Made by a program: the position numbers and the translations under genes
Source of the DNA: an uncultured bacterium
Lineage (GTDB): Bacteria > Omnitrophota > Omnitrophia > Omnitrophales > Abzuiibacteriaceae
Assembly: GCA_964387845.1 (NCBI GenBank)
Contig: CAYLXA010000010.1
Location: 1 to 64,000, forward strand
Length of the DNA stretch: 64,000 nt
Direction of reading: 5' to 3'
Notes under the pieces: model-generated
Told to the model about the DNA's origin: nothing
The model's database searches: none
What the model saw: the letters and a program-made list of their open reading frames with translations, nothing else
Shown here: positions 1,604 through 55,121 of the stretch, piece after piece
Layout of the letters: every line of letters starts with the position of its first letter
How positions within the stretch are numbered: the stretch's first letter is position 1

Positions 1604-3289
1604 TTATTTTTTGCTTTCTTCGGTTGCTTCCGCTCCGACTTTGCCGTTGCCGTCCGTTTTCGCATAGGAAAAGAGGCGCGGGTTCGGCTTTCCGTATTCG
1701 TTAAATATCGCTTCGATTTCGTCGTATTCCAATTCTTCGCGTGTCAATAATTCATGCGCAAACCGTTCGTAAATCGCTTTTTCTTTTGTCAAAAGCTGTT
1801 CGGTTTCTTTCAAACATTGCTGCATGATATCGCCCGTTTCCTTATTGAGCTGGTCCTTCATTTTTTCGGACATCTGGCTCTCGGGCACAACCGTGAAATC
1901 GCCAACCAAACCGGAATTGCCCATGCCGATTTTCCAGACCATTGCATGCGCAAGCGCCATGGCTTTCTCAAAATCGGACGAAACACCGTTAGAAGTTGAC
2001 CCGAATTTCAATTTTTCGCCCACATAGCCTGCAAGACAGACTTTAATATCCGCCAAAAGGGTTTCCTTGTCTTTCGTGAACCATTCCTCGCGCGGTGTCG
2101 GATGAACAACGCCTAGTGCGCTTTTTCGAGGAATGATGGACGCTTTAAACACGTCGCTGCGAGGATGGATCAAATAAGTGACGACGAGGTGACCGGCTTC
2201 GTGATGTGCTGTGATTTCTCGTTCGCGCGGCGTCATCTTAATTTTGTGTTTCACGCCGAGCTCAATGCGCTCAACAGCATCCGAAATTTCACGAAACGAA
2301 ACAACTTCTTTTCCCTTGCGCGTTGCAATGAGCGCGGCTTCTTTTACAATGTTCTCGATTTCGGCCGGTGATTTTCCGACGGCTTTGCGCGCAAGGCGCC
2401 GGCAATCGATGGAGCTTTCATGCTTCACTTTCTTCAAATAGTACTGGAATAGACCTTCGCGTTCGTCTAAACCGGGGCGCCCGATGTAAACTTTTCGGTC
2501 AAAACGACCGGGCCGCAGCAAAGCAGGATCCAGGGATTCTTCGGGCGCGTTCGTGGCACCGATCACAATCACATTTTCCGCTTCCGCGCCGAGGCCGTCC
2601 ATTTCGACGAGGATTTGATTTTGTGTTGAATTGGTTTCTGAATTTCCGAATTGATTGAACGTGCGGTTTTTGCCCATCGCGTCAAGTTCGTCGATGAAAA
2701 TAATGCAGCCGCCGAATCCGTATGCAAGCGAACGGGCTTTCTTGAAAAGTTTGCGGACACGCGAAGCGCCGACGCCGACGAAAATTTCGACAAATTCACT
2801 CGCCGCCATGGAAATAAACGGAAGACCGGCTTCCGTCGCAATGGCTTTCGCAAGATAAGTCTTGCCGCATCCCGGAGGTCCGAGCATCAAAATACCGCGC
2901 AGGATTTTCCCGCCGATTTTTTTGAGTTTGGCGTGGTCTTTGATGAGTTGAACAACTTCCCAAGCTTCTTCTTTGGCTTCTTCAATGCCGATCACGTCAC
3001 TGAACTTAACGTTGACCTCATCGCCCTTAATGGATTTCTTATCGACTTTGGCGAATCCACCGCGCATAACGCCCATGTACATATAAACGAAAATGAGCGC
3101 GTTTAAAGCCACCATTACCATTTGGATCGGCATGGTCGCAAGCGTGATATTGCGGTAATAAGATTCAAGAGACATCATTCCCCAAACTGCTAAAATCACC
3201 AGAACGATTCCGGCAAGAATAATCAGGATCGTCGTGCGGTAATTGAGGAAATGCATTTTCATGCGGCGGTAAAACCTGGATTGAGACAT
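1604..3289 (-). CDS. ftsH: FtsH-family ATP-dependent zinc metalloprotease with a short periplasmic loop
   Basis: Two N-terminal TM segments, Walker A GPPGCGKT, DELD Walker B, and a C-terminal HEAGH zinc-binding motif. Confidence 0.85.
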   Translation of the reverse strand: MSQSRFYRRMKMHFLNYRTTILIILAGIVLVILAVWGMMSLESYYRNITLATMPIQMVMVALNALIFVYMYMGVMRGGFAKVDKKSIKGDEVNVKFSDVIGIEEAKEEAWEVVQLIKDHAKLKKIGGKILRGILMLGPPGCGKTYLAKAIATEAGLPFISMAASEFVEIFVGVGASRVRKLFKKARSLAYGFGGCIIFIDELDAMGKNRTFNQFGNSETNSTQNQILVEMDGLGAEAENVIVIGATNAPEESLDPALLRPGRFDRKVYIGRPGLDEREGLFQYYLKKVKHESSIDCRRLARKAVGKSPAEIENIVKEAALIATRKGKEVVSFREISDAVERIELGVKHKIKMTPREREITAHHEAGHLVVTYLIHPRSDVFKASIIPRKSALGVVHPTPREEWFTKDKETLLADIKVCLAGYVGEKLKFGSTSNGVSSDFEKAMALAHAMVWKIGMGNSGLVGDFTVVPESQMSEKMKDQLNKETGDIMQQCLKETEQLLTKEKAIYERFAHELLTREELEYDEIEAIFNEYGKPNPRLFSYAKTDGNGKVGAEATEESKK

Positions 3290-7213: not shown

Positions 7214-10200
7214 TTAAAACTTGCCGGAAACCCGGGTAAAAAACCCGTGATTACGGTATGAATTTGAATTCCGAAGATCGTCATCAAAATCCGTAAAATT
7301 ATAGCCAATGCCAAAACGGATATACTCGATAATTTCACGGTCAATTTCCAAAAGAATACCGTCATGGACGGTAGATAAGAGATCGTAATCAAAGCGGATA
7401 CGATATTCGGCTGCAATATCCCATTTGCGCGTTACATGAAAATTAAACCGAGTGACGGTCAAGAAAATTCTTGAATTAATCCATTCGCCCGAAGCGCCCG
7501 ATCGGATATTGCCGAATTTGTAACCGAATTTTTGCGCTAAACTAAACCAGCGTGAGAAATCATAAATACCTTCCAAGCCTAAAATTTGAGAAGTCTCATC
7601 AATTTGCACGCCGTTAAAATCTAAATTCTGAAATTGCCCCGCAGGTCCAAAATCACGCATCCACGTGTAGCGCGAAATAATATTAAGCCGGTTATGGTGG
7701 ACAGGCCGATACGAAACGCCGGCGTTTAATTCCGTAAAACTGCCGTCTTGATTGCCCGCATCGCCTGTTTGCGTGCTTACGGATTGGTTTAACTTGGCTT
7801 TGAACCGATAGTCCTGGCTGATTTTCCAATCTAACTCATTGGCGGTCAGCCATTGATACCGCCGGATATTGCCGCGGTCAAGGCGGCCTTCAATCCGGTG
7901 GCTTAAACGCAAGCGTTCATGGCCATGATAGCCAAGCTGCAAAGCCATTGCGGTTCTTTCAACATTCAAAATGCCGTCTTGGACATCTACATTGTCTTTA
8001 ATCTCCGTTATTTCTTTAAAATCATGGACTCTGCTTCTTTCACCGCTAATATCTAAATTCCATTTTTCTGATAAATCAGTATTGTAGCCAACCACATTAC
8101 CCACTTTATCTCCCGTCCTATAGGTAGATATCTGACGTTCCGAGTAAATTCGGGAATTATCGTTAACCTGTTGCGAGCTTCCAATGGTTGTGTTTACAGA
8201 ACGGCCGATGCCACCGTTTTTTGGAGCAGATTCGATATGAGAATAAATACTGGCGCCATCTTTAGGTTGAGTCTGAAATCCGATCCGCGCCGAATCGCCC
8301 AGATTGCCCGCCAAAACTTCGGCATGCACCGTGCCTTTACCCTCAATGGCCGCCTCAATACCGCCGCCGTAACGGTTGTTGGGCTCGCTGCCCGCGCTTG
8401 TCACCTGCCCTTTTAAATAAGGCATCCATTGATTATCCAGCCGATAGCCAAGTTTAGCGCCAAAACCATTTTCAAACTGCTGCTCATCAAAAATCGGTTC
8501 AAAGCCCAAAGAACCGCCGCGCGCGCCGTTGAATTGTTCTTTGCGATATTCCAAAACTGCCAAATATTTTTCATAATCAAATGTGCCCTGGACGGATTGG
8601 GTGAAAAGTTCGGGCTCATTGGTCACAAAGCGATTTTCCAGATAATCAGCCCGGTATTTGGCTCGTAAATATTTCCCGAATTTCTGGGCCAATTCAAAAC
8701 CCGCGCCGCGGTCGCCTTTCTGACTAACTAAAGTTGCGTTCGAAAAACCCTTTTCGAATTTTTTTGCGTAAGCAGAAATATCGGTTGATTCAAATGGTTT
8801 TGATTCCGCTTTGACAAGCCAGGCGCCGTCAAGCAAACGGTTTTCTTTGGCAATTTCTTTGTCGCCGGTTGTGATATTCTTGAAAGTGATACCGCCGTTG
8901 TAAGAAACCGCATTCCGGACTTGAGGGTCTTTTGAGTGAGCGTATTCTGCCGTCACTCTCGTATTTTTGCCGACATGGATCGTCGTATCAACACCGCGTA
9001 AATCATACTCACGGTCCTGGCGCTGTTCGCGCAATGCTGTTCCGCCGACTTTTATGAAATTCCCCAAATAGGTGTAGCCGCGTACGCCGGCCGGCTGGTC
9101 GCCGAAAAGGTCTTGTGATTCAAATTCATAGTCAACGATCAAATAAACCTGGCTGCCATCCAGAACACTGTTTGACAAAATGGAGTCGCTGAAAGCGACG
9201 GATGAGAGCGGCTTCCTTAAAATAATCCTGCCGTTCGGATAATCAATTTCGTAGTCCGTTCCGACAATCAAATCTTTGCTGGATAATGCGGCGCCGTGGA
9301 TCTGGTCCCGGATTTCAATCCTGATTTTTTCGCTGCCTTCCACCACGTTTCTATTTCGAAGATAATAAAGTGATCCCCCAGTCCCTACAAACTCGTTGTG
9401 ATCGGCGAGCTGATTAGCTTTGGCGGCAAACACCGTAACGCCGCGCTTTGAATCCCCGTTCGGCGTTGTTGCCAACACCTCATGATGGACTTTGAGGCCG
9501 GAAAGCGTGCGGCTATAAGTTGATAATTCCGTATCGTTAAATTCCGTTTCAAAACTTCCCCACTTCAGAAACGAGCGGTTCATCTCAACCAGTAGGTAAA
9601 GTCTTTCCTGTGTATCCCGGGCTTCGTAATTAATCTCGGAATCATCGCCGTAAACCGGATAATAATGTTCGGGGTCTAAATTGGTAAAGAGCTGCTGTCT
9701 GGGGTCGCGGCTTGTGTTGTAATGAGAAGTGACCAGAAACTTCCCTTTTATTTTTCCTTTCAAATAGTAAGAAAATTTTCCGTCTTGATAAAAACTGTGA
9801 TGAAATTTCTGATCCCGGCCTACGGTTTCAAGGTTGCCTTTGAAAATATTGCCGCCGATTTCTTCTTCACCCAAAGCGACCATGAAAAATGCGGTATCTT
9901 TGACATCGACTTCTTCTTGATATGTTACCGCTTTCCCTTCCGAGTCGATCGATTTGACAAACACCGACTGTTTTCCTGGTTCCGTAAACAACTCTGTTTC
10001 AAAAATGCCGTCAGGCTTGACAGTTATCCGCTGGTCATTCACTTCCAAATAACGGCCCGGCAATGTTTGGCCGCGAATCATCAAAGTTGGCTTTGCAGTC
10101 AATGGGATACTGCGTTTGCCGTCCCGTAGAATATTCGAAAACCCTGTTGCGGGAATTTCAACCGATGCAAATTCACTTGAAGAGTCCAGCTTGCTGACTG

Positions 10201-11878
10201 CGCGGAAAAACTGAAGCGGCGTCCAATCTTCATGCCCGGTTTCATTTTTGACAACCAAGCGATAACAATAAACACCGGGCTCAATCATGACTCTTTTCAT
10301 ATTATGCCCCGACCATACCGCTTCATTCGGCGGCGGCCCGAGACCATATCCGGTCCATATTTTTTCACCAACAACGTTATAAATATCAATGTGCCACGCG
10401 TTAATCATGTTTGAATAGTTCGTATCAATCTTAAAAACCGGCTCCTGTTCCAACATGCCTTGCCCGATCTTTAAAATTGGGGGATCCATTCGAACTTGAA
10501 GAAGCGGATTGCGAAAATCGGTGCCTTGCGTGATGACAACAGCGAGTTCCTTTTGATACCGCTCGGCCACTTTTGATTCGGGCAGTTTTACCGCAAAATC
10601 TACTTTTTGCATCAGGCCTTCGGTTATTTTGACGAGATAAGCTTCTTCGGTGATAAATTTGGTGCCTTGCGGGAGTGTGTGACCATCGATTTTAATGACA
10701 TGCCTGCCCGGCGAAACGCCGGGAATATGATACTTGCCGTCTTTGTCGGTCAAAATCACAATACCGTCTTCGGTTGCCAAGCGAACTTTTGAAATCCCAA
10801 ATTCACCCGCATCCTGAACGCCGTTTTCATTCCGGTCGTCGAATACTTTTCCGATAATCGTTCCTTCGTCAAAAAATGGGTCAGCAATAATATCAATCGG
10901 AATACTGCGGGTTTGCGACAGCGCACCTCTTTCATCCGTGCCCACTGTGCGCGCATATAGCGTAATTGTATAACGATGCCCTACCGATGCACCCGGAGAA
11001 GCCGCCGCTAGAAAAGAAAGTTGCTTGCTTTGACCTACATCTAAATTACCAAGCGTATAAACGCGTGTAAAATCCAGATTTTCCGGAGATGGGATCGTGC
11101 TGTCCAGCCGGGCTGAGTTATCAATCAGGTTTAATCCATTTGGAACCGTCATGATAAGTTCGAGATTATTTTGAGTGATGGCAGATATATTCATTGAATC
11201 AACAGTTACAAATGCCGCGCCTCCCTTCGGAATTCGATTCTTGTTGATATATACGCCTAGATCAATCGGAAAACCATTAATGGTGAGATTGATCAAATCA
11301 AAATCAACCACGCTGGCGCCGCCGCCGCCTTGCTCAGCGCCTTGGATTCTTAAAGTGACTACCACATAAGAAGTTTCTGCGGGAGCTCGATAACTTGTTG
11401 TCAGGTTCGAAAAAGTACCGCTGACAGTTCCGGGATTGGTTGCTGTACAAGCAGAACTAAACGTACTAGCGGTGCCAGTTCCCGCGATGGAGCATCCGAG
11501 CCGAGTATCATTTGCTCTATAAAATTCGATCACGATTTGACCTTCATCATCAGCGTCGTCACGAACGGTTTGGCGAATCATGGCTGATAGCGCAATCAAA
11601 TCGCCGGGGCGGACCTCGGATAAACTTCTTTGAAACGTAAATGTGAATTCAGCTCCGCCCGTGGCTGCTTCGGATAATTGGAGGTAACGAGCACCGCCCG
11701 GAGCATCTGCTGCCGTAATAATTGAAATACCTCGGTTTGCCGTATTATCCCAATTTCCTGACCCGCCGATACCGCTTTCAAAACTGGGGTTTCCGATATC
11801 ATTGGCAAGAACGGCCGGAGCAATAAAAAACTGTGCCGCAATAAACAAAATTGAAAATTTGATCTTTATGCTGCTCAT
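7214..11878 (-). CDS. Very large outer-membrane protein (1554 aa). It has a signal peptide, Cna-B/SdrD-B-like and DUF11-like extracellular repeats, and a C-terminal Y/G/F-rich beta-barrel ending in Phe.
   Basis: N-terminal signal peptide. Motif GKVFDDRNENGVQDAGE...DGKYHIPGVSPGRH typical of Cna B-type domains. The C-terminal ~900 aa have an alternating aromatic/Gly pattern and a terminal ...RVSGKF. Confidence 0.55.
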   Translation of the reverse strand: MSSIKIKFSILFIAAQFFIAPAVLANDIGNPSFESGIGGSGNWDNTANRGISIITAADAPGGARYLQLSEAATGGAEFTFTFQRSLSEVRPGDLIALSAMIRQTVRDDADDEGQIVIEFYRANDTRLGCSIAGTGTASTFSSACTATNPGTVSGTFSNLTTSYRAPAETSYVVVTLRIQGAEQGGGGASVVDFDLINLTINGFPIDLGVYINKNRIPKGGAAFVTVDSMNISAITQNNLELIMTVPNGLNLIDNSARLDSTIPSPENLDFTRVYTLGNLDVGQSKQLSFLAAASPGASVGHRYTITLYARTVGTDERGALSQTRSIPIDIIADPFFDEGTIIGKVFDDRNENGVQDAGEFGISKVRLATEDGIVILTDKDGKYHIPGVSPGRHVIKIDGHTLPQGTKFITEEAYLVKITEGLMQKVDFAVKLPESKVAERYQKELAVVITQGTDFRNPLLQVRMDPPILKIGQGMLEQEPVFKIDTNYSNMINAWHIDIYNVVGEKIWTGYGLGPPPNEAVWSGHNMKRVMIEPGVYCYRLVVKNETGHEDWTPLQFFRAVSKLDSSSEFASVEIPATGFSNILRDGKRSIPLTAKPTLMIRGQTLPGRYLEVNDQRITVKPDGIFETELFTEPGKQSVFVKSIDSEGKAVTYQEEVDVKDTAFFMVALGEEEIGGNIFKGNLETVGRDQKFHHSFYQDGKFSYYLKGKIKGKFLVTSHYNTSRDPRQQLFTNLDPEHYYPVYGDDSEINYEARDTQERLYLLVEMNRSFLKWGSFETEFNDTELSTYSRTLSGLKVHHEVLATTPNGDSKRGVTVFAAKANQLADHNEFVGTGGSLYYLRNRNVVEGSEKIRIEIRDQIHGAALSSKDLIVGTDYEIDYPNGRIILRKPLSSVAFSDSILSNSVLDGSQVYLIVDYEFESQDLFGDQPAGVRGYTYLGNFIKVGGTALREQRQDREYDLRGVDTTIHVGKNTRVTAEYAHSKDPQVRNAVSYNGGITFKNITTGDKEIAKENRLLDGAWLVKAESKPFESTDISAYAKKFEKGFSNATLVSQKGDRGAGFELAQKFGKYLRAKYRADYLENRFVTNEPELFTQSVQGTFDYEKYLAVLEYRKEQFNGARGGSLGFEPIFDEQQFENGFGAKLGYRLDNQWMPYLKGQVTSAGSEPNNRYGGGIEAAIEGKGTVHAEVLAGNLGDSARIGFQTQPKDGASIYSHIESAPKNGGIGRSVNTTIGSSQQVNDNSRIYSERQISTYRTGDKVGNVVGYNTDLSEKWNLDISGERSRVHDFKEITEIKDNVDVQDGILNVERTAMALQLGYHGHERLRLSHRIEGRLDRGNIRRYQWLTANELDWKISQDYRFKAKLNQSVSTQTGDAGNQDGSFTELNAGVSYRPVHHNRLNIISRYTWMRDFGPAGQFQNLDFNGVQIDETSQILGLEGIYDFSRWFSLAQKFGYKFGNIRSGASGEWINSRIFLTVTRFNFHVTRKWDIAAEYRIRFDYDLLSTVHDGILLEIDREIIEYIRFGIGYNFTDFDDDLRNSNSYRNHGFFTRVSGKF

Positions 11879-11880
11879 GA

Positions 11881-13608
11881 CTAAAACCGCCTATAGGAAA
11901 ATGCCACACCGAAGCGCAAGTCCCGGCCGGGCGTGTTGGTCGGTGTATTGGCGCTGTAACGGATTGCACTGGGAACTCCGATATATTCAACAAACAGCTT
12001 GGTCTTAAATAACCATTCGTTCTCGGAAAATTGATAACTTCTGAAAGGCATGAGCCGCAAACCGGCGGCTGTCAAAAAATAATTTTGATAAAATAAAGGA
12101 TGGTTGGGATTATTGACATGCTCAAAACGCAAATACGGCATAAACGTGAGTTCATTATTGACCGGATTTTCCGGAAGCGGAATGGACGGCCATTTAACGC
12201 CTAGTGTGAACGAGCTATTTAAAATCCAGGATTGATAATGTGGAATCGAAGAAAAATCGGTTTTCTGCCAGCGGTAATTTCCAAAATATTCACCCCAAAC
12301 ATAATTGTACAAAAAATTGGCAAAAGTCTTGGTTTCCGGTTTTGTGCCCAACGGCGGAAGTGCATGGCCCCATTCGTAGAAAATATCAACTCCAGCCCAA
12401 AGATCAGTGTCTTTACTGCCCAAAATTTCATCTTTTAAGTTCTCACGATATAGATATTGAACATACAGACGATAACTGCGTATGAAATCAATAAGCGGAA
12501 TACCCACAGGGCGGAAATTCTGAAGCGCAGCGCTCCGAAGAAACGGATACCAGCCCACGCCTCCGACTAATTTCATATTGGATTTGAAATCAATGCCGTT
12601 TGACTCCATAGCAGGCGTCACTTCAACGTACGGATCAAACGAGGTGCCAAAAGGCCCCCTGAGGCCTTTGATGACAAACCGGTTGGACCAGAAACCGGTT
12701 TGGGCATTGTATTCGTCTGCCTCAAGGTTCGTGGTCTTAAAAGTGGTTTCGCCGAAAGACTGCCATAAAAGCTTTTCTCCGGCCGGCGAGGGTGCGCTCA
12801 GCACGCCGAACGGCCTTTCGCCGATATCGAGCCAATCCATGACTTTGATGGCGATTTCCTCTTCGCGCGCAAAATCGGCTTTCATTTCTTCATCAGAAAG
12901 TGCCTTCGGTTCCTCCGGTGCATATTCATAAATCAACTCAAGAGCGCGGTCAAAATTGCCGCCGGAAGCTTCAATTTCGGTTTTTGCCGCAATAATACTT
13001 GCCTGGGCAAGTTCCGATGTGGAAAAAGATTGATTTCCGACCCAATAAAACGTTTCTTTGCTGCCATCTTTTTTTGTTAATGAAAGTGCTTTGATAGGCA
13101 CTGACAAATACTGCGTTGATTTTGAATTTTTCTTAATATAGGGCTCGATATCTTTGGAAAACCGGATATTCTGAAGCGGGTATGATTCAACCGTGGTACT
13201 GTCAAATCCCGTAATGACTGCGAATTTAGAATCCCAATCAGCACGGTTATCATTAATCACTAAAAAACCGCCGGGTTCACGGGTATCGTAAGCAAGCTTC
13301 ATTTTTGGAGCCAAAAAGAAACGGTCTCTGAAAATATAATCAGGCCCGGTTTCTTGCGCTTGATCAACAGGTTGCAACTGAGATACTTGAAGCGCTGGTT
13401 CAGATTTAGCAGCGGGAGCAGGTTTTGGGGGCTTGGGTTCTTGAACTGGCTTTACAATCGTTTTTTGCGCGTATTCAGCATCTGAAATCGGTTTTACATC
13501 GGCGAAAAGCGGAAAAGAAATAAGGAAGGCGAGGAAGCAAAAGAAGATTGGCGCAGCCGCTTTTTGCCCCAGTTTCGGAATTCTAATTGAAAATATCCGA
13601 GTGATCAC
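11881..13608 (-). CDS. Putative outer-membrane protein (575 aa), start/stop-overlapped (ATGA) with the 1554-aa gene
   Basis: Signal peptide, Pro/Lys-rich linker, C-terminal ...VAFSYRRF beta-barrel signature. 4-nt overlap with the downstream gene. Confidence 0.5.
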   Translation of the reverse strand: MITRIFSIRIPKLGQKAAAPIFFCFLAFLISFPLFADVKPISDAEYAQKTIVKPVQEPKPPKPAPAAKSEPALQVSQLQPVDQAQETGPDYIFRDRFFLAPKMKLAYDTREPGGFLVINDNRADWDSKFAVITGFDSTTVESYPLQNIRFSKDIEPYIKKNSKSTQYLSVPIKALSLTKKDGSKETFYWVGNQSFSTSELAQASIIAAKTEIEASGGNFDRALELIYEYAPEEPKALSDEEMKADFAREEEIAIKVMDWLDIGERPFGVLSAPSPAGEKLLWQSFGETTFKTTNLEADEYNAQTGFWSNRFVIKGLRGPFGTSFDPYVEVTPAMESNGIDFKSNMKLVGGVGWYPFLRSAALQNFRPVGIPLIDFIRSYRLYVQYLYRENLKDEILGSKDTDLWAGVDIFYEWGHALPPLGTKPETKTFANFLYNYVWGEYFGNYRWQKTDFSSIPHYQSWILNSSFTLGVKWPSIPLPENPVNNELTFMPYLRFEHVNNPNHPLFYQNYFLTAAGLRLMPFRSYQFSENEWLFKTKLFVEYIGVPSAIRYSANTPTNTPGRDLRFGVAFSYRRF

Positions 13609-33891: not shown

Positions 33892-36800
33892 TTAGGCCGC
33901 TGTTAATTGGGCCCAAGCTGCGCGAAGTTCAGAACGTAAAGATTCGGCGATTTGGTCGACGCCAAAGCGTGTGGTCAATTGATCGGGTGATTCCAGGCGA
34001 GATTCAAACTGAACATTTCGGAGTTCAGAGCGCAATTGATCCGCAAAATGCTCGTCTTTACCTTCCACACCATAAAGCACGAATTTAATATTATTTCCGG
34101 TGATTCCTTTGAGAACGGTTGTCGCATTTGTTCGTGTCACAATGTTCACAGAGTGGTTTGCATTATCATCTCTGAAGAAATGATTTTTCAAGAACGATGC
34201 CTGCATTTGTGTGCCGCCGAAGATAACAACAGGCCCTGATTTTCTCATGACCGTTGCTCCGGCATACGCAATCGGCAGATTTTCCAACATGCCCGGTGCG
34301 ACACCATAAACAATGATTGTTTGATTATCATCGGTTTCAATTGCTTCGCTTTGTCCAGCTGTTAAAGAAACTGCTTCTTGAATTGAAGAATGAGGCAAAG
34401 TCGCATACGCTTCTTCAAATTGATTCGCCGAATTTGCCGCCCGGCCCTTAATTTCCGGCGCAATAACACTTTCCCAAGTTAAAGATTCAAATGAAACGTC
34501 AGATATATTATTTTCCTGATTTATAACGCGTAACTCGGACGAAGGCGGGATTACCAGCTTCGCCAAAGCAGCGCTTTTCGGGTCAGAAAAGCGCAATTTC
34601 GATCGACTTGAACGCCTCCTTTTTTCGCGACTAACACCTGTCTCTGTCTTTAAACGGCGCTGATGGCCACCTCTCGGAAAAACTTTTTTATTATAGGTGG
34701 GCGGCTCTTTTGTCCTAGAAAGTTTTCTATCTGGCCTTGGCTTGCCGCGATGGCTAAGCGCTCCGTAGTTTTGCCAATCATCAAGAACTCCGACTTTCGA
34801 ACCGCGGCGTCCTTGCACAAATTTGTAAATATTGCCCTTGCCATCAATATAAACAAATCTCAAGTCCCATCCATTTATAACTCTATAAACACGATCTGGA
34901 AGGCCATCTCCATCCAATTCAATCAATCTCCATTTGTGCCGGCTGTTTTCCTGAACATATACTTCAATTCTGCCAAATATTTGATGATTAAAATGATGGT
35001 AACCAATCGCTTTAAGCGGCTCCCATTGTCCATATTCATCAGGCTGATTATTCTTGACCCAAACTTCATCTGCAAAGAATTTTTCCCGCAAATTGACAAG
35101 CCTCAGATTTCCTGTGAAACCTGATTCAATAGTGCGATTGGTTTGATAGGCAGCCTGGGCAATCCATGCCATAATTACCTTTGCAATTTTTTGTTTGGAC
35201 CATTTATGATAGTAGTTAGCTGAGAAATTATCGAATGGCTTGAATTGACTTGTGATCAGTTTGTTTGAATCGAGATAAAAGCCTACAGAACCTGTACTTT
35301 CATATCCGTAACCCTCATCAAAACCGACTAGAATTTGATAATTTTGTCTACCTGCGCGAACAATCTGCAACAATACCGGATCTCGCGGAGAATAAGGATT
35401 ATTTAGTTTAACGGTATATGTTTTCCATTTTGGATTATCAAAATTTGGAATAAAATCTGCGTTCGACTTCGCGCGCAATTCGGACTTTGCGTCATCGGGA
35501 CGCGAATGATTGGCCATAGGTGCTTTTTCTACAATTTTATTATCACTATTTTCTATATTGACAGGGCCCCGTTTATTTGATATAAGAAAGTCCTCTTCGC
35601 GCACAAACTGAAAAGGAGAATTAAGAATGGTAGAACGTGAATTCACCGCAAGAGAAGTCGGTGCGCTTGTTGAATCTTTCCGGAATGACATTTCCGCCAT
35701 TGCAGAAGGCGTTAGCGGGTTGGCTGTCCGAATGGATCGGGTAGAAGCCAGACTCGCAGTGGTAGAGGTTAAATTAACGTCTGTTGAAGACGCTGTTCGC
35801 GTGGCGGTTCCCAACCACGAATCCCGCATCACCAAACTAGAATCCAAAGTTTTCGGCCGCTGATTATCTTTGCGCAGCTCGGACTTCAGAGAGGCGATTC
35901 CAAAAAACAATGCCTGGCCCTGTTCATTTTTAATTGTTTTCATCACTTGCAGACCACCATCAATAAACTTTTGAAAAATGGTTTCTGGCATTCGATGGTC
36001 TGCCCTGATTCGGCCCGTTGGACTATCCCAAGCTCCCTCAAGCTGATTATAAAAAGTTGTGGCAAAAATTCCTTTTGGTTTAAGAATACGCCTAATGCTT
36101 CGCGCGGCCCGGCTGGCCCGCTCAGTAGACCAGATTTCGATTCCAGGCTTCAATTGAAGAATGGGCATCCCCTCTTCCCTGACATAATCCCACACTGCTT
36201 CATCATCTAAATTACGGTAATGTTGCTTTGTTTCAGCGTGATTGGTAATCAATGCCCAATATAAAACCGAAGAAGCAATGATTAAATCAAATTGCTGGTC
36301 AGCAAATTGACTTAAATCCAAAATATCTGCCTGAACCGCACTCGCCCCGAACCGTTCTTTCGCAAATTGAACCGCATTCTCGTCGATATCAGCCACAATA
36401 ACATCAGCCCCTTTTTGCCGAAGCCATTCAAGGATACTTCCGTCTCTGGCAGTTCCAATTTCAAGCACCCGCTTGCCTTTCCAATAATCCTTTTTCAAAC
36501 TGTCGATTTCTCTCAATCCATGCAAAATGAGTGGTGCTGTACCGCTAGAAATCATTACATCTTCTTCGCCGCGCAGCTCGGCTCTGGCTTTCCGATTAAT
36601 ATCTGACCCGGGCACTTCATTGTGAGCCGGAGCGGACTTCGCGGCGCCTTGGTTCTCTTGCAAATCAATCGATGACATGAAAATATCCCGCCGCGATGTG
36701 ACATAGCCGGCAACATGCATGGTAGACCCTTCGACCGAAAGAGCGAGCGGCAAGTAGTCTTTGGGAAAGTGAAGCAGGCCATTTTCAAATTGCGTTTGAT

Positions 36801-39800
36801 CAATTTGATTTGAGCGGCGGTCAAGTGCAACAATCGCTGAGCCCACTTCAGGATCTTCCCTATTTAACCGATGTGGTGCAACATGCAGGTATGCGGTATT
36901 TCCAAAAATAGAGTTCGGCCAATCTTGCGTAAAAAGTTGATAGGGTTTTTGATTGATCGTCACTTCTCCTAATAAATTGCCCGCTTGATAAACAAGCTCT
37001 CCTGTCTTGATATCCACAACACCTATACCGCTCAAAGGCGCATGCGAATCAAGAATTAAATGATCCTGATTCGAGCGTAAATATCTCACATATTGAAATA
37101 ATTTCGCATTACGTTCATAAACACCTTCTTTTAGTTTGTCAGTACGCAAATGACCGCTGACAGGATCCAAGGCATAAACTTTAGAGGAGCCCAATCCTGT
37201 GAAAAATAAAACGCCTTGAGTGAAGGTGATAAGCGGCGTTGAAACTATTTCATCGGGAAATACTTGCTTCAAATCGAGAACGCCTTTTTCAAATTTGGCA
37301 TGATCTGGCTTTCCGTCACTCATCCGAAACGCGTGAATATAAGCCTGGCCTTTCCGGGCTCTGTCATCAACCGGATGGACATCTGTCTTTCGATAATAAG
37401 CAGCATACAAAGTTTGTCCATCTTCGCTCACGGCCAACGAGTTAATCCGTGCTTCCGGGTCAATCTTTTTAACCTCGTCCGACAAATTTAAACGTCCGTT
37501 CGACCACTTTTCAGACATTAATGCTTTGCGATCTAAATCAACTGCTAAAATGTCACCCGTGAACGAAGTCAAAATGTAAGCCGCATTTCCTCTGGCCACC
37601 ATTTCACGAGGCATGTCCTGAGACGAGATATGAAAGAATCTCTCATTATTTTGCCGCAACTCGGAGCGGGTTTCGGGCTTCGCTTCCATTAGTTTTTTAA
37701 TTTGAGCGCGTGCTTCTGCAATCATTTGATCCGTAATTTCACCCTGCTCTTTGCCGAGCGCCCCCAAGATTTTCGAATCTAAATTGCTTTTTTGGCTGAG
37801 TTCTAAACTGTCATAACCGATGTCTTTTTTCAATTGAACGATCTTTTTATAATTAGAAAAGGTGCGAAGAAAATTAACAACCGGATCCAGCGAGACATGC
37901 TGCCCATCGTCAGTTGCATAAGATCCCAGCAAATCCAGAGTGGTTGTTGCAATCATCAATTCAATTGCCTGGTTAAATTGATCTTCGCCGCGGATGCCTG
38001 CCTGCTCAAATTCCTGCCTTAATTTCTCCAATTGTTGAGCACGATGAATCGAAAACGCAAAAATGTGATGTTTAATGATTAATTTCAAAAGCGCATTGCT
38101 TGAAACGTCCATTTCACCGAAGTGAATATGATTGTCACTTAACACGCGAAATGATTCGAGTTCATGGCCCGGAAATGAATGGTCTCCATTCTCTTTGAAC
38201 TGCATTTTGGTTTTCTTGCCGATATCATGAAGCACGATAAATGCTTCCAATATCGCGCGGTCTTTTGCATTCCAATCCTTAATCAGATTGATCGCATCTT
38301 TGGGCGCTGTAGTGTTTCGGTCAATTTGATTGAGTGCCGAGAGAATGGCTTGTAAATGGTCCTGAAGTTTAGCATTCTGGCCGCCTTCCCTATGAAACAG
38401 GCTGTGATAATGAGGCGTTTCCAAAAAATCCGCATATTGATCCGGAATGCCAGATAACTGTTTCACCAATTCATCCAATGCTGAAGCCGGCCCATACTGG
38501 CGCAGCTCGGAGCGCTGTTCTTTTATCCATTGCACCAAACGCCGATAGTCAGTAACGCGAAGCGACATGCGGGAATTTCCGGGATTCGGCGCTATGATAA
38601 ACTGGTCGGCGGTTCCTCGAACCTTTTGGTACACAAAGACGAGAAACATACCGTAAAACCCCTGTGATTCCGGAAGGCCCCGGGCAACCCAATCCGCTTC
38701 AAGAATTGACCTGAGGACATTTGCCTTGATGGTCAACTCGTCCGGTTCCTTGTTTGCATCTAATTGTGCGATGACGGATTGAAAATATTGCAGAACTACC
38801 GCGTTTCTCCGTTGACTTTGAAGATCATTCCCCAATCCTTCAAAAAGTTTTTGCGTAAAGCGCTGCGCATTACCCATTTGATTTAAATCACGGACCAATG
38901 CCCGATATTCGCGCCGGTAAGCAAGCCATTCGTCTTCCAAATGCATATCAACGGAGCGCACAACCTTCTTAAATGCTTCCGGACTTGTTATCAATGGCTC
39001 CATGTCTGATTTGCCATGCAATTGCTTAACAAAATCAATCAGATATTTCATGCCCTCATCTGCTTCTCTGGCCAATGCGGCATTGATCAAGTGCGTACCT
39101 TCATGGATCATGACATATTTAATAATCAGAGGTGGAAAATGAAGCGCGAAGTCACGATTGATAGTCACATGAGTCACGCTTCCGTCTAATGAAGTTTTTA
39201 TACGTGCATACGAATGCCTCTGCAAAGAGCTTAATAAAGTGTCATCGAGAACGGGATTTTTTTTAAATGCCTCGATAAATTTTAATGCTGTTTTTTGATC
39301 GTCTAGGTTTGAAATTTCGGAAGCAATTTTTTCAAGGCGGTCCACAACCGCTTGAATTTCAGGGAGAAATTCGGGAGTTCTGATCCACCGCAAGATAGGC
39401 CATGCAGCAAATAAAGCGGTTGTTCCTGCACCGATTATTATTTGCCTGCGGCTTGGCAGCCAAAATTTCTTAGCAGGCTCTTCGCTTTTTACTCCCTGAC
39501 GCCGCTCCTTATTTTTTCGTCCGTTCTCACTTGCGCGCAGCTCGGCGCGGGAATTTCCGCTTGGAAGCTTGATGTTAAATTCTGCGGCTGCGTGGGCCAG
39601 CGCACGGTCGCGGTGCTCTCCATACATCAAAGCTTCCCGATGATTGTTTAGGCCTTTTTTCTTCCGAATTCGCTTTGCTTTATGCACAGAAGCCCTGGTT
39701 GAGTACTTCAAAGAAAGCGGCGCTGCCGGAAGCTGAATGCCGAACCGTTTCGCAGCATTGTAAAGCGCCCTGTCCCGATGCTTGCCTCGGGTTAACTCGC

Positions 39801-46268: not shown

Positions 46269-46297
46269 AGTGTACCTTAAAATACCGGATATTTCAA
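46269..46297 (-). promoter_or_regulatory. Candidate promoter of the giant ORF (minus strand TTGAAA-N17-TACACT). The 5'UTR has an imperfect palindrome CTACTTTCTTAAGAAGTAG overlapping the SD region.
   Basis: Reverse complement of 46292..46297 is TTGAAA and of 46269..46274 is TACACT. A weak hairpin CAGATAAA/TTTATCTG at 46324..46340 ends the upstream small gene. Confidence 0.3.
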
Positions 46298-46333: not shown

Positions 46334-46600
46334 TTATCTGAAATCTTTATACTTATCATTCAGCGTTTTTTGGATATCTTTTACCTGCGCTTTTGCCTGC
46401 TCGCCCAACCCAATTTGGGTCTGAGTATAACCGCCGGTTAATTGATCAAACAGGCCTTGTGAGGCGGCCTGCTTTCCCTGCTTCGGATGTTTTTGTTCCT
46501 TCTTCCCGATCCACTGGTCTAAGTAGCCCATTTTCCCCGCGATTAAGAACATAATGATAATCAGCGCAATTAAAAGATTGATTAAATTGAACCCTTTTTC
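46334..46600 (-). CDS. Small single-pass membrane protein (88 aa) with a prepilin-like N-terminus lacking Glu5 (MKNEKGFNLINLLIALIIIMFLI). The ORF-track N-extension to 46798 is spurious.
   Basis: The start is set at MKNEKG. The longer call overlaps the upstream membrane-protein gene in another frame. Confidence 0.45.
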   Translation of the reverse strand, partial: EKGFNLINLLIALIIIMFLIAGKMGYLDQWIGKKEQKHPKQGKQAASQGLFDQLTGGYTQTQIGLGEQAKAQVKDIQKTLNDKYKDFR

Positions 46601-46620
46601 GTTTTTCATGATGTCTCCTT

Positions 46621-54741: not shown

Positions 54742-54772
54742 AGGGGTAAGGATTAAGGGGTAAGGGATAAGC
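54742..54772. repeat. Terminal inverted repeat (right) of the four-helix-bundle insertion: AGGGGTAAGGATTAAGG..., abutting the leuB start codon
   Basis: A 16-17-nt core is the exact reverse complement of 55173..55189. Confidence 0.5.
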
Positions 54773-55121
54773 TTTTGCGAAGTCCGGAAAGCATTCTTCC
54801 GATTTCGTTACAGTAGTTAATAAGCATTTCATAATGTTCATGATCAACATAATTTAAATCCCTGCTTAAAAGTAATAAATATTTGGTTTCTTCAAGTGAA
54901 GAATTCGACAAATTCAGAAAATGCAAATAATCTTTTGTACTTTTTCGTTTTTGTCCTTCTACAATGTTTGTGGCAATCGAAACTGTGCTTCTTCGTATTT
55001 GAGAAATAATTCCAAATTTTTCATCATTTGGAAAACGTTTCGTTAACTTATAAATTTCTAAAATTAAAGTGTGAGATTTTTGCCAAACTTTTAAATCTTG
55101 AAATGTTTCTATCCTATACAT
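54753..55121 (-). CDS. Four-helix-bundle protein (TIGR02436-like family, the type often found in 23S rRNA intervening sequences)
   Basis: Characteristic ...DLKVWQKSH...L...[26 protein letters not shown] pattern. The last residues are encoded by the flanking repeat. Confidence 0.75.

Follow-up and report, generated by a model that had tools for sequence, protein, structure and literature searches.

A rare family of giant bacterial proteins punctuated by a conserved R-(S/A)-E-L-R peptide: candidate exported polyproteins

Omnitrophota and related uncultivated bacteria are notable for their giant genes. Several well-known systems offer points of comparison. MARTX toxins are very large exported proteins that carry a strain-variable array of unrelated effector domains shaped by recombination; they are cut in their linkers, contain few cysteines, and some of their effectors have localisation signals of their own. 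CdiA and Rhs proteins have a short peptide (VENN and PxxxxDPxGL, respectively) at the boundary of their recombining modules, which in Rhs is also a cleavage site; each protein has a single motif and a single C-terminal toxin, and an immunity gene comes next. The chymotrypsin-fold 3C and 3CL proteases of viruses recognize small-x-L-Q↓small at every product boundary of a polyprotein, and the cargo of the type IX secretion system (T9SS) combines an N-terminal signal peptide with a conserved beta-sandwich C-terminal domain. We are not aware of any polyprotein of cellular origin in which a strict recognition sequence is repeated many times. Here we analyze a 64,000-nucleotide stretch of DNA (termed the window; positions 1 to 64,000 of contig CAYLXA010000010.1, assembly GCA_964387845.1) from an uncultured bacterium of the Omnitrophota. 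On its minus strand, at 33892..46236, lies a single open reading frame (ORF) of 4114 codons plus stop, whose product, the window protein, contains 17 copies of the tetrapeptide (S/A)ELR, 15 of them preceded by Arg or Lys. This motif is real and statistically unambiguous, and it defines an undescribed and very rare protein family.

Like a MARTX toxin, the window protein is a giant chain of unrelated, exchangeable modules with few cysteines. Unlike MARTX, however, it has neither RTX or glycine-rich repeats nor an architecture of the type I secretion system (T1SS) type, as judged from Pfam and NCBIfam scans of the window protein and its relatives P0006 and P0007. There is also no match to the C80 cysteine protease and no cis protease was detected, the sole Cys of the window protein being in its signal peptide. 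Moreover, MARTX proteins are cut at Leu-X, whereas here an N-terminal signal peptide is combined with a strict five-residue putative site. In contrast to CdiA and Rhs, members of the family have up to 17 motifs, their variable part is internal, their C-terminus is constant and the next gene is leuC; no TPS, FHA or YD repeats were found in family-library scans. The motif resembles 3C/3CL sites in having a small P4, Leu at P2, a fixed P1 and a small or polar P1', and in being repeated at putative product boundaries. It differs from viral polyproteins in that the gene is cellular and chromosomal, no protease was recognized in the chain, the putative P1 is Arg and the sequences are unrelated. Finally, like T9SS cargo, these proteins combine a signal peptide and variable cargo with a C-terminal domain common to otherwise unrelated proteins, but the fold of that domain is predicted to be Rossmann-like alpha/beta, and no T9SS C-terminal domain model matches the window protein.

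Two further groups of giant proteins have been described. According to the preprint by West-Roberts et al. (bioRxiv 10.1101/2023.11.21.568195), Archaeovorins exceed 30,000 residues (ORFs of more than 90 kb), contain SecA-DEAD and preprotein-binding domains and start with C39 or S8 peptidase domains. Their repertoire includes a divergent methyltransferase, Nudix, peptidase, glycosyltransferase, PPDK and many transmembrane (TM) helices, genes with class III signal peptides lie nearby, and cleavage is suspected, with the cleavage points stated as not known. Of such features, methyltransferase, Nudix, PPDK_N, HExxH, TM helices and a pilin-like neighbour are present in our family, which comes from related uncultivated bacteria. 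Its members (1364-4159 residues) are, however, about ten times shorter and have no SecA, C39 or S8 match. Term searches of this preprint and of a second one on Omnitrophota giants (bioRxiv 10.64898/2026.06.07.730766) brought up no mention of the punctuation motif, the constant C-terminal domain or the Cys depletion; 'polyprotein' and 'cysteine' gave no match in either, and 'motif' and 'cleavage' none in the 2026 preprint. Term searches of Seymour et al. 2023 (PMC10066038) were likewise negative, and full-text literature searches on the motif and on bacterial polyproteins returned nothing relevant. Polyvalent proteins, found on phages and conjugative elements, carry up to 15 unrelated enzymatic domains per chain and are proposed to be processed and to act in inter-genomic conflict (Iyer et al. 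2017, PMC5512222). Unlike these proteins of mobile elements, which are delivered with DNA, the giant gene occupies in three genomes a conserved housekeeping locus, with leuCD, rplM/rpsI, arg, dap and truA genes around it. Scans with PHROG signatures gave generic methyltransferase and Nudix matches only. In short, the family has none of the defining features of MARTX, CdiA/Rhs, mobile-element polyvalent proteins or T9SS cargo.

A first-pass annotation, made from the sequence letters and a list of ORFs, had already singled out the 4114-codon ORF and its motif. The frame is intact and starts with TTG, and the two remaining minus-strand frames contain 203 and 286 stops over the same span. The motif comprises 13 SELR and 4 AELR, and all 17 ELR tripeptides of the protein belong to it. 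From composition, 0.28 copies of (S/A)ELR would be expected (Poisson P about 8e-25), which bears out the earlier statement that the motif is far above chance; the runner-up tetrapeptide outside the motif occurs only three times, and a six-frame reading of the rest of the window (52 kb) yields only three motifs. The first base of the S/A codon lies at 46080, 45918, 44790, 44280, 44148, 43503, 42495, 39903 and 39546 for motifs 1-9, and at 38511, 37665, 36582, 35883, 35484, 34539, 34029 and 33933 for motifs 10-17. All 17 positions given earlier agree with these within about 20 nucleotides, and the degenerate copies (KSELLQ, RSKLRF and ARELTRG) and the codon variation among sites were seen as well. 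Since the sequence is of metagenomic origin, the ORF might be thought an assembly artefact or a chain of decaying pseudogenes read through by chance. This reading is effectively refuted by the number of open codons compared with the stops in the other frames, by the presence of the identical 4114-residue product in two assemblies (a 101-kb metagenome-assembled genome (MAG) contig at NCBI and a Logan assembly), by intact relatives of 1364-3491 residues from independent samples, by purifying selection on the motif and by the removal of Cys codons.

A word-index homology search with the N-terminal half of the window protein recovered two relatives, P0006 (3275 residues) and P0007 (2294 residues). 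Their locus is arranged as in the window, with truA, an ABC transporter, MR_MLE, DUF819, a pilin-like gene, the giant gene and leuC. Across the three syntenic loci LeuC is 92-96% identical and the other flanking proteins 65-87%, and the start codon of all three giant genes is TTG. Searched in the same way, residues 2235-3460 and the C-terminal domain gave no match. As P0006 and P0007 have that domain at 65-78% identity, a negative outcome of the word-index search carries little weight. We also scored a profile of the common C-terminal ~210 residues exhaustively against 1.84 billion cluster representatives, which yielded nine proteins in total: the window protein, P0006, P0007 and P0008 to P0013. 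The family is thus delimited by its C-terminal domain, independently of the motif. The motif is nevertheless kept in all nine representatives, as the first-pass annotation would have it for homologues: each ends in the tail ...LRSELRxxWxxxxAA, is nearly Cys-free and has 3-17 motif copies compared with fewer than 0.35 expected. Over 11 family proteins (22,462 residues) the motif occurs 96 times. Additional members occur on the same contigs: a 4159-residue gene lies beside P0006, P0010 lies on that contig, 525 kb long, as well, and P0012 has another gene beside it, which indicates at least 2-3 paralogues per genome.

The constant parts of the family are unmatched in Pfam, NCBIfam, PHROGs, PADLOC and PDB, in line with the earlier view that the architecture is that of no described family. 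No relatives were found in phage, plasmid and viral collections; the whole window protein found nothing in the genome collection; and a metagenome scan with the C-terminal domain recovered the P0006 contig only. The family may be somewhat larger than the nine representatives. P0011 is annotated as Candidatus Omnitrophica, and P0012 adjoins a recombinase and a relaxase-like gene. Besides the modules of the window protein, the relatives contain Nudix, P-loop kinases, PPDK_N, receiver, HPr, RidA, Pol-beta nucleotidyltransferase, sigma-70 region 4 and the RpoA C-terminal domain. These modules are of the cytoplasmic enzyme or regulator type and all highly divergent; the chain yielded no match to glycosyltransferases or HEAT repeats. 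By comparison, a giant gene of adhesin type on the P0013 contig lacks the motif and shows 8 Cys in the 1857 codons covered. Motif and Cys depletion are thus specific to the family, and the idea that every giant gene of these genomes would have them was rejected.

Motif-punctuated, Cys-poor giants were also noticed on the contigs of P0006 and P0012 (L003:2-3088 (+), L087:10001-20476 (+) and L086:21896-27928 (+)). The P0006 genome has at least three such giants, and its 4159-residue one carries PPDK_N plus a receiver and has a different C-terminus. By inspection, residues 969-1753 of P0006 (L003) consist of about seven tandem ~110-residue repeats (...IESIRYV...IIERY...LNPLGFQLDW...) with no family match.

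We then asked at which level the motif is constrained. Between orthologous sites, at least 10 synonymous changes are found in the E-L-R codons but not a single non-synonymous one, and only K/R and S/A alternate. Nucleotide conservation is confined to the 15 nucleotides of the motif (77 sites, seven genes). Together this indicates that the constraint acts on the peptide, and an attC-like or hairpin DNA site was rejected since nothing is conserved past the 15 nucleotides. In agreement with this, intact copies (96) far outnumber non-synonymous near-variants (17). The earlier claim of a conserved peptide rather than a DNA repeat thus holds in the main, but with the reservation that a secondary codon bias is present. 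Four genes provide 46 sites, in which 24 of 34 Ser codons are TCC (background 17%); GAG is used at 31 of 46 sites (31%), CTG at 20 of 46 (16%) and CGC at 20 of 46 (23%); these codons are over-used 2 to 4 times compared with the same genes' own usage, giving the consensus CGC KCC GAG CTG CGC. Preferred-codon usage was rejected as the source, because the housekeeping genes do not have the bias. Shared descent of the linkers or gene conversion, or an aid to recombination, are possible sources.

This codon preference is also the starting point for the suggestion that the motif is a translational stop-go or pausing signal, by which several chains would be made from one ORF without a protease; the need for many products from one ORF would fit as well. 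The codons vary, however, there is no conserved RNA context and no Rfam match, and a copy 9 residues ahead of the stop would be purposeless. We know of no bacterial precedent for such a signal and find this reading hardly credible.

The first-pass annotation also placed the motif between modules. This stands: not one of 73 sites is located within a Pfam or PADLOC domain envelope, compared with 6.7 expected. The window protein is arranged as follows (all on the minus strand):

46069..46236: leader, residues 1-56; by inspection a Sec-type signal peptide (MKQYLK, ITAILIIFCFSI, QNTIG↓L), then a Ser/Pro-rich spacer ending in LSELR
46069..46083: motif 1, LSELR, residues 52-56
45907..45921: motif 2, KSELR, residues 106-110
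44779..45906: module, residues 111-486; basic stretch, SRR, hydrophobic helix (residues 134-155), then a ~330-residue domain with no family match
44779..44793: motif 3, RSELR, residues 482-486
44269..44778: module, residues 487-656; the last ~90 residues are a copy of a recurrent Ser/Thr-rich segment
44269..44283: motif 4, RAELR, residues 652-656
44137..44151: motif 5, RAELR, residues 696-700, at the end of a 44-residue Ser/Pro-rich spacer
43492..43506: motif 6, RSELR, residues 911-915, at the end of a module (residues 701-915) with no family match
42484..43491: module, residues 916-1251; TM helix (residues 975-997), basic loop, TRRDFLF twin-arginine-like helix (residues 1009-1035), HELTH (residues 1077-1081)
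42484..42498: motif 7, RSELR, residues 1247-1251
39892..42483: module, residues 1252-2115 (864 residues), without family match, motif 8, RSELR (39892-39906)
39535..39549: motif 9, RAELR, residues 2230-2234, at the end of a 119-residue basic module (residues 2116-2234)
38500..39534: module, residues 2235-2579; basic stretch, SRRQIIIG, hydrophobic helix (residues 2266-2285), HEGTH (residues 2378-2382), motif 10, RSELR (38500-38514)
37654..38499: module, residues 2580-2861; Cas3-HD-type HD domain (residues 2618-2762), motif 11, RSELR (37654-37668)
36571..37653: module, residues 2862-3222; beta-rich in a low-confidence model, motif 12, RAELR (36571-36585)
35872..36570: module, residues 3223-3455; class I S-adenosylmethionine (SAM) methyltransferase, Pfam envelope residues 3253-3397, motif 13, KSELR (35872-35886)
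35473..35871: recurrent Ser/Thr-rich segment, residues 3456-3588, motif 14, KSELR (35473-35487)
34528..35472: module, residues 3589-3903, no family match, motif 15, SSELR (34528-34542)
33895..34527: family-defining C-terminal region, residues 3904-4114; predicted five-stranded alpha/beta domain, motif 16, RSELR (34018-34032), closing a helix, and last strand
33922-33936: motif 17, RSELR, in the terminal helix, followed by the tail AAWAQLTAA

Some of these modules had been named from sequence alone. The SAM methyltransferase is well supported (Methyltransf_11, 47.1 bits, cut-off 21.2, E=4e-12; Methyltransf_31, 36.6 bits, cut-off 27). For the HD module PADLOC gives a Cas3-HD match (E=4e-6), but the Pfam HD match (E=0.002) is under threshold, and so is that of Pfam TAT_signal (E=0.002) to the proposed twin-arginine translocation (Tat)-like anchor, although TRRDFLF is present. 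The two supposed zincins do have HExxH at residues 1077 and 2378, but match no peptidase family at E up to 1. A single-sequence model of the module called 'beta-propeller-like' (pLDDT 43) consists mostly of beta strands.

Across the 96 sites, position -1 is R in 76 cases and K in 11, position -2 is mainly S, A or L, and +1 is small or polar. Pro is never found at -1, +1 or +2, compared with about 4.4 expected per position. Hydropathy drops near the motif. Inter-motif lengths are bimodal: about 30 are those of spacers (14-63 residues) and about 66 those of longer segments (93-1179 residues), and many of the spacers are rich in Ser, Pro, Thr and Ala and bracketed by two motif copies. Moreover, signals that are normally found at an N-terminus follow directly on some motifs. 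In P0012, RAELR↓QVTRREFLKRTAVGITAAMSGRILPAQVAS is by inspection a canonical Tat signal, with TRREFLK 4 residues past the motif, and hydrophobic helices begin 7-32 residues past a motif in the window protein (residues 136 and 2266), P0006, L086b and P0010. Only in a cut chain would such Tat-type segments be N-terminal. Internal start codons after the motifs were rejected, as by inspection there is no regular Met there. The post-motif Tat and TM signals, the absence of Pro and the motif-bracketed spacers lend indirect support to a processing site.

The same features bear on another reading, in which the motif would be a repeated docking or sorting signal along an uncut, membrane-associated giant, recognized for example by a chaperone, by export machinery or by a modifying enzyme; many giants of Omnitrophota have been proposed to work as single proteins of this kind. 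In every member the last motif forms part of a longer conserved helix, AExLRSELRxxW, at the very C-terminus, a position typical of recognition signals, and the copy at residues 4069-4073 is inside a folded domain. A signal peptide together with several TM helices also recalls the 'SP+TM' (signal peptide plus TM) giants described in bioRxiv 10.64898/2026.06.07.730766. Docking, however, needs neither a position at domain boundaries, nor avoidance of Pro on both sides, nor the bracketing of 20-60-residue spacers. A Tat signal or signal-anchor right past the motif would be hard to use in an uncut chain, and the positive-inside rule would assign a contradictory topology to the five helices of an uncut window protein. 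We consider docking unlikely, albeit the most serious competitor to cleavage.

The three syntenic orthologues have only four elements in common: the leader (residues 1-93), one module (window residues 72-486 and P0006 residues 524-938, 79% identical), the Ser/Thr-rich segment (window residues 3448-3598 and P0007 residues 994-1145, 85% identical) and the C-terminal domain, which is the only element common to the whole family. The homology between the window protein and P0006 ends right after ...LPLSRSELR (motif 3), and that with P0007 begins inside the motif that precedes the Ser/Thr-rich segment, at GAG CTG CGC AAA GAT.... Since the breakpoints of homology are at the motif, the motif is the junction of module exchange. 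These alignments show that modules are swapped among paralogues as well as among orthologues and that the breakpoints are at the motif, and the locus would resemble a fast-evolving cargo array, as in multi-effector toxins.

The Ser/Thr-rich segment of ~130 residues (KTLDSSLVMRDSWLG...FQFVREEDFLISNKRGPVNIENSDNKIV) has a motif copy on either side and occurs in four gene contexts, with identities of 38-85%; no other interior element is widely shared. It is found at 35473-35871 (-) and 44269-~44535 (-) (residues ~568-672) of the window, at residues 994-1145 of P0007 and at L003:~1830-2200, in the second giant. An origin of the motif from internal repeats was rejected, as the window protein contains just one related pair of segments.

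Breakpoints inside the motif or at its edge are also what would be seen if the motif were mainly a DNA-level junction, that is, a GC-rich block of 12-15 nucleotides (CGC KCC GAG CTG CGC) providing microhomology for in-frame cassette exchange, with the peptide as a tolerated by-product. The strong codon bias, unexplained by housekeeping usage, would fit, as would the S/A alternation, which is a single T/G change, and the at least 2-3 paralogous genes per genome. The third positions vary, however, and the full consensus is estimated to be present in only ~1/20 of sites, so that usable exact microhomology would be rare. E-L-R has moreover remained invariant through at least 10 synonymous changes, non-synonymous near-variants are few compared with intact copies, and there is neither flanking conservation nor an attC-type inverted repeat. 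As the primary role of the motif we judge this quite improbable; a function as DNA junction can, however, coexist with cleavage rather than replace it.

A third line of evidence concerns the fate of the chain. The window protein contains a single Cys (residue 15), where about 34 would be expected from the 38 other window ORFs examined, which average 0.82%, and the 11 family proteins have 7 Cys in 22,462 residues. By inspection, full-length members all start with a Sec-type signal peptide, in which the n-region is basic, the h-region 12-14 residues long and the c-region of the small-x-small type, and the single Cys of several members lies in its helix (IFCFS or LFCFT). The leader of the window protein, which holds its only Cys, is conserved in P0007 and in extended P0006, and analogous leaders are found in P0010, P0011, P0012 and L086b. 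The near-lack of Cys together with the signal peptide suggests a chain that leaves the cytoplasm unfolded. Proteins that cross the periplasm unfolded include autotransporter passengers and RTX or CdiA toxins, which the combination of a signal peptide with the removal of Cys from cytoplasmic-type domains resembles.

At the other end of the chain, a model of the C-terminal domain, built from a nine-sequence alignment (pLDDT 71.6, pTM 0.70), predicts a five-stranded alpha/beta, Rossmann-like fold followed by a terminal helix. The last motif is in this terminal helix, and the penultimate one at the end of a helix within the domain. The invariant residues include no Ser, His or Cys, so that the domain is not an obvious protease; this, and the generic Rossmann-like fold, led us to reject it as one.

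According to the first-pass annotation the chain would cut itself, the embedded HExxH modules acting as cis-proteases on RSELR. The window protein has two such modules, each behind a Tat- or TM-like helix, P0012 and P0013 have one each, and P0006 has by inspection a JAB-like HxH...SxxD signature. P0006, P0007, P0010 and P0011, however, lack HExxH and yet carry 7-14 motif copies each. Moreover, the HExxH modules are not homologous to one another by BLAST and match no peptidase family, the helix ahead of them points towards the periplasm and away from a cytoplasmic chain, and the only universal part, the C-terminal domain, has no catalytic residues. Self-cutting is thus contradicted by the relatives, and we think it very unlikely.

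We infer from this evidence that the ORF would be a member of a tiny, undescribed family of modular polyproteins of uncultivated bacteria in the neighbourhood of PVC (Planctomycetes, Verrucomicrobia and Chlamydiae) and Omnitrophota. (R/K)-(S/A)-E-L-R would be the P5-P1 site of a dedicated endopeptidase encoded elsewhere, which would cut past the second Arg in the linkers and thereby produce domain-sized products and spacers of 14-63 residues. Several of the released products would expose an N-terminal Tat or membrane-anchor signal of their own, and the constant C-terminal domain, which lacks conserved catalytic residues, may be a handle for export or for the protease. The scenario of best fit is a cargo array that would be exported and cut, and whose freed modules would use their own signals; MARTX effectors do so once released in host cells. 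To an exported modular polyprotein that is cut in trans after the second Arg we give about an even chance. A wider proposal, that this is a cellular, chromosomal polyprotein system and a protein-level counterpart of the operon or integron, with modules in one frame and a 15-nucleotide block that is protease site and swap junction in one, is possible but distinctly more doubtful.

Several observations weigh against a cleaved and exported polyprotein. Two C-terminal motif copies are in predicted helices of a folded domain, and the penultimate copy is not conserved in remote members, so that not all copies have the look of exposed linkers. A pure protease-site model does not account for the codon bias of the motif. 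No obvious protease candidate was found among the window neighbours: the sole peptidase recognized in the window is an FtsH-like AAA plus peptidase M41 gene of only 561 residues (1604-3289 (-)), 30 kb from the giant gene and with no evidence of a link. Hydrophobic internal helices, such as that at residues 975-997, should halt a Sec-exported chain, and Tat signals operate from the cytoplasm. Finally, the SAM- and ATP-dependent modules need the cytoplasm, as they would have no substrate outside.

The surroundings of the giant gene are those of an ordinary bacterial chromosome, with genes for arg, dap/lys and leu biosynthesis, rplM-rpsI, uvrA, an ftsH-like gene, AsmA, glgA, thiG and truA; tRNA and Rfam scans of the window gave no match. 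The giant gene is flanked by a pilin-like gene and, downstream, by leuC, and no terminator was found between it and leuC. The elements at its 5' side are:

46334..46609, minus strand: pilin-like gene directly upstream, 91 residues, class III signal peptide KG↓FNLINLL
46269..46297, minus strand: promoter-like TTGAAA-17-TACACT, a consensus match only, conserved upstream of P0006 and P0007
46237-46300, minus strand: 5' leader with GAAAGTAGG; corresponding leaders at L003:9780-9820, L004:7070-7110 and L086:9960-10000

The Shine-Dalgarno-like GAAAGTAGG is immediately upstream of the TTG of the giant gene and is also found ahead of P0012. As a side observation, the conserved 5' leader, with this sequence 10-15 nucleotides before the start codon, precedes four family genes at different loci. 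The pilin-like neighbour is conserved in the three syntenic loci, its signal peptide being without the usual Glu5; P0010 is preceded by a PilT/T2SSE-type ATPase instead. The closest LeuC among GTDB species representatives are those of Kiritimatiellia MAGs (73-75%). From this one marker, together with the annotation of P0011, the organism can be placed only broadly, in the neighbourhood of PVC and Omnitrophota. That the giant gene belongs to a kiritimatiellial leuC neighbourhood was rejected, as no such gene is present in L006, the closest GTDB relative whose leuC has 10 kb of upstream sequence.

Other genes of the window are recorded here for completeness. At 57930-60943 (-) there are four genes, which encode an N_methyl pilin-like protein, two proteins without Pfam match (186 and 370 residues) and a 298-residue signal-peptide protein. 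The latter contains AAIHFLSELRRLES, which is nearly identical to the C-terminus ARHAFLSELRVLESA of the 4159-residue giant on L003; in tblastn the similarity extends no wider. A 122-residue gene of the 23S_rRNA_IVP or bAvd-like four-helix-bundle type (54753-55121 (-)) lies between leuB and thiG, and since there is no reverse transcriptase among its annotated neighbours it is probably not part of a diversity-generating retroelement. Two further ORFs are poor in Cys yet lack the motif: one of 1554 residues (7214-11878 (-); SdrD_B and CHU_C-like Ig-fold matches, Cys 0.19%) and one of 575 residues (11881-13608 (-); no Pfam match at E up to 0.001, Cys 0.17%). Both are probably surface proteins.

The family provides the first explicit candidate cut sites for giant genes of the Omnitrophota type and makes the question of their cutting directly testable; the near-absence of Cys and the orphan C-terminal domain are further testable features. 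If the proposed processing is correct, R-(S/A)-E-L-R would be the first explicit cleavage map for the giants of Omnitrophota and PVC bacteria, and a cellular organism would be making polyproteins in the manner of viruses, with a strict recognition sequence. One would then expect a new protease of high specificity for R-(S/A)-E-L-R, possibly of use as a reagent, and a new pathway of export or processing, of which the constant C-terminal domain would be the mark. The genes would then be fast-evolving cargo arrays, whose methyltransferases, Cas3-like HD, Nudix, kinases and mimics of sigma factor, RpoA and HPr suggest the manipulation of another cell.

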